The translations under genes and the position numbers were made by a program. Below are positions 1 through 17,376 of a stretch of DNA of 21,652 nucleotides, in pieces (position 1 is the first letter of the stretch; the number at the start of each line of letters is the position of its first letter). The notes beneath the pieces are model-generated. The model worked only from the letters and a program-made list of their open reading frames with translations. It ran no database searches and was not told the origin of the DNA. The DNA lies in IMG/VR virus record IMGVR_UViG_2516143027_000011, positions 1-21,652 of that record. One strand, 5' to 3'. This DNA is from a virus. Lineage: Duplodnaviria > Heunggongvirae > Uroviricota > Caudoviricetes.

Positions 1-255
1 CTATTTCATTTCGTTAAGTGCGTACGCACCTCTATCAGTGAGTGCAAAAAAGCCATCCCTTACGCTGGGTTGAATCAACCCAAACATACGCAATTCACCC
101 AGTATTTGTTCTGAGCGACTACCAGCACCAGAATGCTTAATTAGTGCAAATTCAGGCTGTGCTTCTTCACTGAGCAAAGTCAATATTTTGACAATGGCGT
201 CACGTTTGCTTTCATCTGCAATGTCATGGTATGGATTGATGGAACAGGTTACCAT
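1..255 (-). CDS. Small hypothetical protein (84 aa), possible winged-helix DNA-binding fold; stand-alone gene downstream of the tail operon
   Basis: Complete ORF with ATG at 255-253 and stop at 3-1. AAGGA Shine-Dalgarno about 8 nt upstream. Segment looks more AT-rich than the phage structural genes. The wHTH suggestion comes only from the pattern SEQILGELRMFGLI...DGFFALTDRG. Confidence 0.4.
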   Translation of the reverse strand: MVTCSINPYHDIADESKRDAIVKILTLLSEEAQPEFALIKHSGAGSRSEQILGELRMFGLIQPSVRDGFFALTDRGAYALNEMK

Positions 256-395
256 AGTGTTTTCCTTTTTTTATGAAAATCATATTTTACCATATCCCAA
301 CACGCCATATTGAAGTGCTCAATATTCACTCACCCTAAAAGGTATCTGTTGTGCAATCAGTTCCCCTACTCCCAGGTATCGCGGTTAAACAGGTA

Positions 396-421
396 TCAAA
401 AAGCCGCATTATGCGCGGGCT
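396..421 (-). terminator. Putative rho-independent terminator ending the minus-strand late operon
   Basis: GC-rich imperfect hairpin (gccgcattatgcgcgggc on the plus strand) followed on the minus-strand transcript by a U5 run (plus-strand A-run 398-402), directly after the stop at 432-434. Stem has a bulge, so strength is uncertain. Confidence 0.3.
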
Positions 422-431
422 GATGGGATGA

Positions 432-2680: not shown

Positions 2681-3377
2681 GAATCATTCCCTTTATTCCA
2701 TCAAGATTATCGCCAACCAGCATCATGGCTGCGGTGTAAACGGCAGACTGCTGCGGAATGTCCTTCACCAGTTCCAGTAACGTTGTGCCGGTGTCTCCGC
2801 TGGCAGTAAAAACCCACGCTCTGGCACTCTTCCCCTGTAAGTCATTCAGGCCGCTGGCCACATCACTGATAAGCTGGTCACGCAGCTGCGTGAACTCGCC
2901 CAGCTGTTTTTTCAGCCCTTCGATATCAAATCCGGCACCCGCCACCTTTTGTGCCTGGTTGATTGCCGCAGCAGATAAAGCTGCCCTGCTGGTTGGTACA
3001 GACAGTGGAATGGACGCAGGTAACGCTGCGGCGGTTTTCGCCGGGATCTGCATCTTTTCAATAGCCAGCGCTGCGGCGGATTGCGCCAGCCGTTTTACCT
3101 GCGTGAATGCCGGGGCGGGGAAAATCCCGACCAGGTTATTCAGGCTGGCCATAAAGTTTTCCTGCGTCTGTCCGGTGACCATCATAATCACCACGTCCAC
3201 ATTCCCCCCAGTTCCGGCCAGGCGTTCAGCAAGATAGCGAACAGCATTAACCGGGCTGAGATATGCCCCGTTCGCTGTCTGCTGTCCCAGCCCATAAATC
3301 CACGGATGCGCAGGGACGATCGAACAGTTCAGCGCAGCAACAGAATCCGTGAAGGCCAGACGTGCTTCACGCCACAT
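2652..3377 (-). CDS. Phage tail-associated protein of unknown function (about 241 aa)
   Basis: Start set to the internal ATG at 3377, which has a GGAGGT Shine-Dalgarno 8 nt upstream; the track start at 3413 would overlap the upstream gene by 47 nt. Function not recognised. Confidence 0.45.
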   Translation of the reverse strand: MWREARLAFTDSVAALNCSIVPAHPWIYGLGQQTANGAYLSPVNAVRYLAERLAGTGGNVDVVIMMVTGQTQENFMASLNNLVGIFPAPAFTQVKRLAQSAAALAIEKMQIPAKTAAALPASIPLSVPTSRAALSAAAINQAQKVAGAGFDIEGLKKQLGEFTQLRDQLISDVASGLNDLQGKSARAWVFTASGDTGTTLLELVKDIPQQSAVYTAAMMLVGDNLDGIKGMIHDFDPDTGA

Positions 3378-3954
3378 TTCCAGGCACCTCCGGCCACACA
3401 ATTTCCGGCGCATCTTCCGCTTGAATACGATTCAGTAAAACGCGGTATTTTTTCCATGCGGTAAGTAACAATGTTTCTTCCTGGCTCGCCATGCCTAAAA
3501 CAACAGCATCCTGCAATGTGGCAATGGCAGTATGGGCCTGTTTAAGCAGTCTTATCTTTTCCAATTCTGCCTCACGGGTTAATGCAACTCGCATAGACTC
3601 AGCATCATCCTCCCATTTACTGCCATTCCATTTTTGCCATGCGTTTTCAGGCTCCAGAGTGGTTGTTCCAGCTGGATAATCCCCTGGTGCTGTTATCACG
3701 AACCTTCTAGCGTCTTTCGTATCAAATACAATTTCGCCACGGTGATCTTTAATAGCAATCCATTTCTGTTTTTCTGTATTAAAAATTGCCACGAATCCGT
3801 CTTTTGTTAATGGAGGTTTAATTGTGGTGCAATTGGCTGGTAGTCCTGTGTGAGCGGGAATAAAAGCGTTATCACTACCAATAAACTCATTCGTCTCAGG
3901 ATGAAGTTTATAAACAGTAACTGTTTGATCGATATCACTCATTTTAAATATCAT
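3367..3954 (-). CDS. Tail fibre assembly protein (Tfa, lambda Tfa / P2 gpG family)
   Basis: C-terminal motif LLLTAWKKYRVLLNRIQAEDAPEIVWPEVPG is characteristic of tail fibre assembly chaperones; lies immediately downstream of the tail fibre gene. An alternative start at 3942 is possible. Confidence 0.8.
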   Translation of the reverse strand: MIFKMSDIDQTVTVYKLHPETNEFIGSDNAFIPAHTGLPANCTTIKPPLTKDGFVAIFNTEKQKWIAIKDHRGEIVFDTKDARRFVITAPGDYPAGTTTLEPENAWQKWNGSKWEDDAESMRVALTREAELEKIRLLKQAHTAIATLQDAVVLGMASQEETLLLTAWKKYRVLLNRIQAEDAPEIVWPEVPGNVA

Positions 3955-5561
3955 TAAGCGAGTCTCACGATATAGTTTAATGCAATGTTTTTAACAGTGT
4001 TTTCTGAAGTACCCGCAGCATTAACCGTAATGGTGTGTCCATGCGAACCAATCGCAACAGAGTGCGTATGAGCACCAATACCGACAGTATGTTTATGCTC
4101 CCCAGCACTTGCTGCAGTACCTGATACCGAGTGGGTGTGTGCGCCCGCAGAATTCGTTGCACCTAAGTGAGTTTGAGCAGAGTTCGACGAAGCTACTCTA
4201 CCGGAGCTAACGTTAGCATTATCTCCCTGAGATATCGGATGTGTATGTGCACCTGCTGAAGCAGCTGTTCCGCTAACACTATGGGTATGAGCACCAGTGT
4301 TATTCGTAGATTTAGTTCCATAATCAAACGATGATGTGGTTTTTGTCCCTAAATCGGTATTTGAGGCACTGGCGCTATGGGTATGTGACTTAATATTATC
4401 CTGTTCATAAGATAATACGGCGCGTCCGCTGTTAGGCTTACCTTTAATCGTCTGCCCGCGCATATCAGGAATAACACCCAATGGATACGCAGCAGCCAAT
4501 AATGGATATACTGCCTTATCAAAAGACTGCCCCTGCATAATTGCCCAGCCAGGAGGTGGAATATCTGCTGGCCATGGAAGTGGAACACCAACCGGCAGAA
4601 CATCACTACGACTTAAAACGGCCAGTTCACCCAGCTCCAGGCTTTTTCTTGCTTTCACCTTGTCGCTAACATCAGCAAGGTTTGCATCCTTACGCAAAAA
4701 ATCGCTGCTGGCCTGCTGTTCTCCCAGGCTACCCTTTGGCCGTAAATCCGTGATGTTGCCATCCGCATCAATGCTGGCCACAGCAAACACATAATGCTGA
4801 ACCCCGTTCTGAACATAATCAGCAAGATTTGCTGCCACCGTGATTTTGCTCTGCACATTCCAGACACTGGTCAGTGTCCCTGTCCAGCACACATCCAGCC
4901 AGACTTTTACCGGCTTTGTCGTTACCGTAATATTCTGATTCGCAGCCAGTGACGCACGAAGTCCAGCCACATACCCCGTGCCTTTCGTGACAAAAAACTG
5001 ATTGCCGGTTTTGGCTACCAGATACCCGTTACCAAAAAACGCCGCCGCGCCATAAATATCCATATTTTCCAGGCGCTGGCGTTCATCCATTCCGGCCAGA
5101 CGTGCAGTAAAATCAATCTGCCATGTTTCAGCGGGTGTATTAATCCCGGTTTCCGTTTGTGCGCCATTGTACTCCATCAGAAACGAGCGGGTCAGCACGT
5201 TCCCCTGTTGACCTTCTTTTGTTTTCAGTTTCTGCTGTGATGGTGCATGGACAATCATTGCCAGCGTACCGCTGGCCTTATTGAGCAGACCGATCCAGTT
5301 AAAACTGAAATCACCCACATCTGCGCCCAGCACTACGGAATAGACCACACCGTTTTCATCCACCACACCGGTGCGGGTAACAGACTGCCGGTGAACAATC
5401 TGTGCAGCCGGTGGTAATGTTTCATTGCGGTCAACAGGTGTATCCGGGTTTAAATCCGGCACACTGGCAAAAACAAATTCATCCAGTAGTACCGGTTCAC
5501 CCGTTGCGCCCTGCTGCGCTTTCCAGTTTTCAAACGCCAGTGTGATGGCTGTCTGTGACAT
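3954..5561 (-). CDS. Tail fibre protein (535 aa) with a C-terminal His-rich repeat region
   Basis: AAGGAGG Shine-Dalgarno 5 nt upstream of ATG at 5561. Position between the tail protein I gene and the tail fibre assembly gene. C-terminus carries repeated [15 protein letters not shown] units. Confidence 0.8.
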
Positions 5562-17294: not shown

Positions 17295-17376
17295 ATCCCC
17301 CCTGTTCCACTCCCTGACGCTGCAATTCAATTATTGCCAAATAAAACAGCCACTGCATTACGCTTTATTCTGAACA

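Follow-up and report, generated by a model that had tools for sequence, protein, structure and literature searches.

A small predicted winged-helix gene in an optional slot between the tail-operon terminator and the probable cos site of an ESSI-2-type P2-family prophage

The 84-aa ORF at the left edge of the window (the whole stretch of viral DNA that was analyzed, 21,652 nucleotides) is very probably a moron that encodes a winged-helix protein: an optional, self-contained transcription unit lying between the terminator of the tail/baseplate operon and cos. The ORF and its low GC, the signals on either side of it, its patchy presence at a fixed site in related prophages and the predicted fold of its product carry this reading. 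The function of the protein is treated separately below, where a DNA-binding role is weighed against three others and against no function at all. The features concerned are collected in Table 1; window coordinate x corresponds to L001 coordinate x + 12000.

Table 1. Positions and carriers of the features discussed (window coordinates unless a locus is named).
Feature	Position	Strand	Remarks
84-aa gene, complete ORF	1–255	−	ATG 255–253, TAG 3–1
Shine-Dalgarno AAGGAA	262–267	−	AGGA at 266–263, 7 nt 5' of ATG
Extended −10 promoter element TGGTAAAAT	284–292	−	putative, sequence-inferred; without a good −35
Inverted repeat ATATTGA-N5-TCAATAT, candidate operator	307–325		overlaps the −35 position
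Intrinsic terminator, tail/baseplate operon	394–418	−	hairpin 404–418 (L001 12418–12404), T-run 398–402
567-aa baseplate/spike-like protein gene, last of tail operon	432–2135	−	phrog_2258 baseplate protein, E 2e-276
Own terminator of the 84-aa gene	L001 11989–11973		directly after the stop; hairpin ACCCGCctagtGCGGGT then T6
cos region, conserved noncoding	L001 11640–11975		165–500 bp left of window coordinate 1; core L001 11804–11818
att core TATAATATAGCC	L001 9937–9948; L002 17334–17345
411-aa gene, far-side cargo	L001 10236–11471	+	EC42405; 32.6% GC; opposite strand to the 84-aa gene
345-aa PDC-S64-like gene, far-side cargo			Br_190_kylling
DUF6338 set, far-side cargo			another carrier
491-aa gene, far-side cargo			another carrier
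Retron-type reverse transcriptase, far-side cargo			relative
AbiU/AIPR; DzbA (Dazbog component) homologue; OLD/HEC-04-like ATPase, far-side cargo			relatives
Abi protein; PIN protein, far-side cargo			relatives
Near-side slot: empty			L015, L016, ESSI-2
Near-side slot: serine acetyltransferase gene			ev040
Near-side slot: 84-aa gene			window prophage

The gene touches the edge of the window yet is whole, from ATG through TAG, and its product is RefSeq WP_000255618.1, which carries the annotation 'hypothetical protein'. The first-pass annotation had described a separately initiated 84-aa gene with a good Shine-Dalgarno, AT-richer than the phage core and reached across an AT-rich intergenic region from a putative terminator at 396–421; every element of that description is in place, because the ORF, the Shine-Dalgarno, the terminator and the low GC were all found there. 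The gene has a GC content of 42.7% and the spacer (256–431) one of 41.5%, compared with 54.0% for the baseplate gene and 50.8% for the whole window. The hairpin and T-run on the minus strand agree with the terminator interval first given and, with this hairpin preceding the gene and a second terminator after its stop, the description as a stand-alone unit past the tail operon holds as well. Every full-length copy has exactly 84 codons, across seven lineages in which amino acid identity falls to 42%. Values of dN/dS range from 0.24 to 0.64, the highest belonging to the closest pair; in deep comparisons synonymous sites are saturated (dS 1.5–2.0), and dN/dS is there 0.24–0.32. By these measures of sequence divergence, the 84-aa ORF is a genuine, selected gene.

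The tail operon ends with a gene for a 567-aa baseplate protein that, besides its phrog_2258 assignment, gives weak Phage_base_V and gp5_C matches, and the gene preceding it in the operon matches HP1_ORF34. The terminator that follows forms a hairpin of −6.9 kcal/mol in the window versus −14.7 kcal/mol in the relative L003, where the stem has one G more (CGGGC versus CGGC in the window); this weakening therefore makes read-through from the late operon into the 84-aa gene possible in this prophage. Elsewhere in the window, GC falls to 35–43% at ~3600–4100, at the junction between the tail-fiber gene (3954–5561) and the tail-fiber assembly gene (3367–3954), a drop that points to horizontal exchange of a host-range module.

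The prophage to which the window belongs is a member of the P2 family (Peduoviridae) and has ogr, GPO scaffold, P2-type capsid and gpM genes along with a CI-type repressor, a CII-like gene and an integrase. It is of the ESSI-2/Quadragintavirus type of the P2 family, integrated between mntR and mntS and extending from L001 ~9937 to L002 ~17345. Comparison with the empty site of K-12 (L009) placed the att core within palindromic sequence of the divergent mntR/mntS intergenic region, and the order leftwards from the 84-aa gene is terminator, cos, variable defense hotspot and attL in that intergenic region. An attP within 500 bp beyond the 84-aa gene was considered and rejected, the att cores being elsewhere and a third copy not being found near the gene. 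The palindrome between mntR and mntS is presumably the MntR operator. At attL the phage-derived arm restores a 17+17-nt palindrome that is 94% complementary (L001 9923–9957; L002 ~17320–17350), and near each att end there is one copy of a possible arm-type repeat, AATGTCGCAAAA(A/T)TGTC. Because the insertion falls inside the palindrome, which the phage arm restores, integration may change, or leave intact, the regulation of mntS and mntR by manganese.

Upstream of the 84-aa gene, a consensus promoter scan, which requires a −35, found no −35/−10 pair. The extended −10 sequence ATGGTAAAAT is unchanged in all seven lineages despite the diverged spacer around it, and the Shine-Dalgarno sequence GGAAA is unchanged in the seven loci compared. 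The 7-N5-7 inverted repeat occurs a single time in the window and in the 58 kb of prophage plus flanks, with 0.05 occurrences expected by chance; it is retained, with one mismatch, in three lineages at protein identities of at least 76%, and is unrecognizable in lineages with 42–45% protein identity. Two ideas about it were rejected: that it co-evolves with the 84-aa protein, as it cannot be recognized in the distant lineages, and that it recurs elsewhere in the prophage, as it is single copy in the 58 kb. The repeat is thus a weak candidate for an operator, and from the elements in this spacer we infer that the gene may have promoter activity and be autoregulated. Transcription from its own extended −10 promoter would permit expression in the lysogen independent of the late operon, and read-through of the weakened upstream terminator could add further transcription in this phage.

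Over 40 nt, the gene's own terminator with its flank matches the tail-operon terminator at 75% identity (family D1), and both terminators end with a T-run plus (G/T)ATACCTGT; the 429-bp cassette with the 84-aa gene is bracketed by a direct repeat formed by these two similar terminators. Between them, one other ORF of at least 30 aa lies on the gene's strand (79 aa, with a TTG start, overlapping the end of the baseplate gene), and the plus strand has only ORFs of 32–41 aa that were judged to be due to chance. On this arrangement of ORFs and terminators, the unit is monocistronic. The lone terminator flank of the ORF-less relative L015 resembles the second terminator flank of L010, and the cassette has probably been gained and lost via recombination between the terminator-like repeats or conserved flanks.

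The distribution of the gene is patchy. Fifty of 5426 complete E. coli genomes contain the baseplate gene and eight of these 50 contain the 84-aa gene, its DNA being identical in five genomes and 93% identical in three more, with the label 'hypothetical protein' in all of them. The near-side slot, which runs from the baseplate terminator to cos, holds one gene at most (Table 1). Baseplate proteins from relatives that lack the ORF are 91–96% identical (L015, L016, ev040) or 79% identical (ESSI-2), and those of carriers are 77–91% identical, to that of the window. We read the gene as an old but dispensable cassette, because it is present in only 8 of 50 and because ORF-less phages reach 95–96% identity versus carriers down to 77%. 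The presence of the gene in a minority of related E. coli prophages, its own terminator and its low GC all bear out the earlier suggestion that it is moron-like. That suggestion had come with the proviso that absence from close relatives would speak against the gene; it is indeed absent from many, but this makes no case against it, because all carriers have an intact ORF under purifying selection, and its absence is accordingly read as the signature of an accessory gene.

Beyond these genomes, four relatives, of which two are truncated, came from a word-indexed search of 5.8 billion proteins. A further true relative was added when 1.84 billion representatives were searched exhaustively with HMMER, a search in which only P0002, P0004 and P0005 are true relatives; IMG/VR contributed two further lineages at 42–45% identity. 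Two other candidates, P0006 (SUMO-like repeats) and P0007 (a PIN7 domain with repeats), were rejected as their E values of ~1e-5 to 1e-4 arose by repeat summing alone and hhalign gave a probability of 5.6%. Neither megablast with window positions 1–431 nor tblastn with the 84-aa protein found a match among 50,697 phage records, and no locus was confirmed in a peptide-pattern scan of genome contigs.

AlphaFold2, with a divergent homologue in the alignment, returned a model of the protein with a pLDDT of 81.7 and a pTM of 0.70; an earlier model, whose alignment included truncated sequences, was mediocre (pLDDT 67). The model comprises a disordered tail (residues 1–14), helices H1 (15–30), H2 (35–42) and H3 (45–57), a short β-strand (33–34), a β-hairpin wing (61–72) and a final helix H4 (74–83). 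This gives a good-confidence prediction of a winged helix-turn-helix domain, followed by a short C-terminal helix and preceded by a 14-residue tail that is disordered and conserved, in keeping with the winged-helix-like pattern that had been noticed in the translation. Family searches gave nothing above chance: no Pfam family at E ≤ 1 (including MarR, PadR, HTH_24 and similar), a best E of 0.38 in PHROGs, a best match in NCBIfam (AllC, E 0.044) that is far below the cut-off, no PADLOC family at E ≤ 1, and an empty PDB sequence profile search at E ≤ 10.

As to function, we consider the chances about even that the protein is a small DNA-binding regulator, possibly self-repressing, with targets outside the prophage. 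It would be a small, probably dimeric regulator of the PadR/MarR/Sso10a structural type, and may repress its own promoter via the 7-N5-7 inverted repeat at the −35 position. Its real targets, placed outside the prophage because a second copy of the repeat is absent from it, would be genes of the host or DNA sequences in a competing phage or satellite. The close structural neighbors of the model are all DNA binders and R47, R56 and R66 are present in the window protein, in which basic residues are few in the presumed DNA-reading helix. Several observations stand against a regulator: the protein has no match to a DNA-binding family and is acidic (pI 5.2, net charge −3), its tail is the most conserved part, the repeat is lost in distant homologues, and there is no −35. 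The disordered tail (SxNPF/Y, with S5, N7 and P8 invariant) has a mean pairwise identity of 69%, and the putative recognition helix is less conserved than this.

The same observations lend themselves to a different use of the winged-helix fold, in protein binding, which we regard as possible though somewhat unlikely. The product would then be a small acidic inhibitor, acting in anti-defense or against a competing phage or P4-like satellite, that docks via its conserved N-terminal SxNPF/Y tail and is kept beside cos as counter-defense cargo. Such a role keeps some probability because some homologues are very acidic: net charge across the family spans +0.7 to −9, the lower extreme being reached in L025 and L026, which have acidic wing tips (GSDDG, DSEDG). 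The protein also evolves faster than a structural gene (42–45% identity versus 77% for its structural neighbor in the same phage pairs), a pattern typical of arms-race genes; the gene adjoins a hotspot with AbiU/AIPR, a DzbA homologue, a retron-type reverse transcriptase, PDC-S64 and an OLD-like ATPase; and the cos core is common to P4-like satellites. Against these points, the L011/L024 lineage is slightly basic (pI 8.1), the structural neighbors bind DNA, PADLOC and PHROGs give no similarity to known anti-defense proteins, and a dN/dS below 1 does not indicate positive selection. In its most pointed form, that the protein is no transcription factor and acts through the SxNPF/Y tail on a host defense protein or on P4-like satellites with the same cos, the proposal is distinctly unlikely; if true, an acidic winged-helix inhibitor would found a new counter-defense or anti-satellite family.

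The 84-aa gene itself, whichever role its product has, ends close to a conserved noncoding stretch. Past the own terminator, ~330 bp of noncoding DNA are better conserved than the 84-aa gene across all relatives, and 183 bp past the stop lies a 15-mer, CTACACCGCACCCGC. The record of Cronobacter phage ESSI-2 begins and ends with this 15-mer, its 15-nt terminal redundancy; the ESSI2_ev015 record and the metagenomic contig L010 each end inside it, and exact copies occur in all related loci and in one P4-like satellite, from E. coli ST131. An Rfam search of L001 9800–12500 at E ≤ 1 found nothing. We read the stretch as very probably the cos site because of these four independent assembly ends and because the core is common to the satellite.

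Proximity to cos raises the alternative of a late accessory packaging or DNA-end factor, expressed by read-through from the tail operon and binding near cos, much as the winged-helix domain of lambda Nu1 binds cosB. All carriers have the gene 183–186 bp upstream of the cos core, CTGAAAA repeats are abundant in the cos flank, and the upstream terminator is weak in this phage. We nevertheless hold such a factor to be very unlikely because most relatives with the same cos are without the gene: 42 of the 50 E. coli prophages, together with ESSI-2 and ev040, have the same cos flank and repeats and lack it. A small terminase subunit, gpM, is already encoded by the phage, in relatives the upstream terminator is strong, and the constant spacing follows from the conservation of the DNA between gene and cos.

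Some observations on the cos region stand apart from the question of the 84-aa gene. About 60–105 bp past the cos core on the cargo side (L001 11700–11745), a ~45-bp segment that differs in every lineage interrupts the cos flank, with a highly conserved block on either side; it has short hairpin-like complementarity (e.g. GCCAnnnnTGGC) and may represent the scar of a recombination event or an element that confers specificity. In the ORF-less relative L016 (NZ_CP169309.1), an 88-aa RefSeq 'hypothetical protein' is called over the cos region at 4450–4716, and this call is probably spurious. The P4-like satellite of E. coli ST131 (L014 4501–4671, NZ_CP103710.1) has an integrase, sce7725/7726, a delta-like gene and a DUF927 primase; the cos core separates its hotspot genes (sce7725/7726) from the delta-like gene. 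Finally, the cos-like stretch was matched in 456 of the 5426 E. coli genomes and the baseplate gene in 50 only; given this excess, and given that the one case inspected is a satellite, there may be a large satellite lineage that depends on helpers of the ESSI-2/Quadragintavirus type rather than on P2 itself. P4-type satellites and their helpers have cos in common, and variable defense hotspots adjoin cos in both (PMC9122126; PMC13586616).

On the far side of cos, towards attL, gene content differs between prophages (Table 1), and by this content the region is a defense hotspot such as has been described in P2 and P4. The unannotated 411-aa gene of EC42405, which has no match in Pfam, NCBIfam or PADLOC and whose product gives a weak N-terminal match of Cys-rich, zinc-ribbon-like type (E 0.03), is a candidate uncharacterized defense gene. 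Small HTH regulators frequently accompany defense systems, and hotspot genes lie 0.6–2 kb from the 84-aa gene, so a dedicated regulator or partner of the adjacent cargo has to be weighed; we find it highly improbable. An identical WP_000255618.1 stands beside different cargo, the 411-aa gene in EC42405 and the 345-aa PDC-S64-like gene in Br_190_kylling, other carriers hold the DUF6338 set, the 491-aa gene, the retron-type reverse transcriptase, or the AbiU or DzbA homologue, and some prophages with a hotspot are without the 84-aa gene. Because the cargo differs beside an identical protein, the gene is neither the first gene of a cargo unit nor a dedicated regulator of one, and its belonging to the neighboring cargo was rejected for want of co-variation. 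The earlier suggestion of a further cargo unit beginning beyond coordinate 1 also fails on position, as the gene's own terminator, ~180 bp of conserved DNA and then cos intervene, and on orientation in EC42405, whose prophage matches the window and carries the cargo on the other strand. That the ORF is a chance or decaying one without function is scarcely credible: the tiny family, the missing annotation and the dN/dS of the closest pair would suit it, but exact length is kept over saturated synonymous divergence, the promoter element and Shine-Dalgarno are conserved, and the predicted fold is confident and compact.

We therefore return to the optional transcription unit with a winged-helix product, for which the payoff taken alone is modest: an orphan family of few members, whose fold and slot are both of familiar kinds. 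The more useful outcome is a map, in which cos lies between the last tail gene and attP with an accessory slot on either flank, and which can guide the mining of cargo from a near-side one-gene slot and a larger far-side defense hotspot. The 84-aa gene and its 411-aa neighbor are cheap candidates for phage-challenge and satellite-interference assays.

Compared with known systems, the predicted fold is like those of PadR subfamily 2 (~100 aa; PDB 7wjp, 5zqh), Sso10a (1r7j, 4hw0) and the MarR core. The 84-aa protein has no detectable sequence homology to these groups (Pfam at E ≤ 1 and PDB profile searches being empty), its C-terminal helix, at ~10 residues, is shorter than the dimerization helices of PadR and Sso10a, and, unlike all three, it is acidic with a conserved disordered N-terminal tail. 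It is not filed under any of them, because the sequence searches did not place it there and because conservation of a DNA-binding surface is doubtful. Aca-type regulators have an operon partner ORF, and none such was found between the terminators of the 84-aa unit; Cox/Xis-type directionality factors are small basic winged-helix proteins encoded beside int or the repressor switch, a description that the 84-aa gene does not fit.

The closest organizational parallel is with phage morons (lambda bor and lom; HK97-type), which are promoter–gene–terminator units, as is the 84-aa gene if its putative promoter is included. Like them, it has a lower GC content, presence/absence polymorphism and a site between the end of an operon and the next backbone element; unlike morons of recent arrival, it is old within its lineage, with 42% identity at the same site. 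The position of cos between baseplate gene and attP is a layout that we take to be HP1-like. In P2, by comparison, cos is found between gpA and gpQ, the portal gene (PMC9122126). As at the cos-adjacent hotspots of P2 and P4, the 84-aa gene borders cos, and swapped anti-phage systems lie beyond cos in relatives; it differs from the cargo of those hotspots in lying on the backbone side of cos and in matching no known defense model in PADLOC. The 84-aa protein is, on these comparisons, a new and very small family with a known fold in a known kind of slot.
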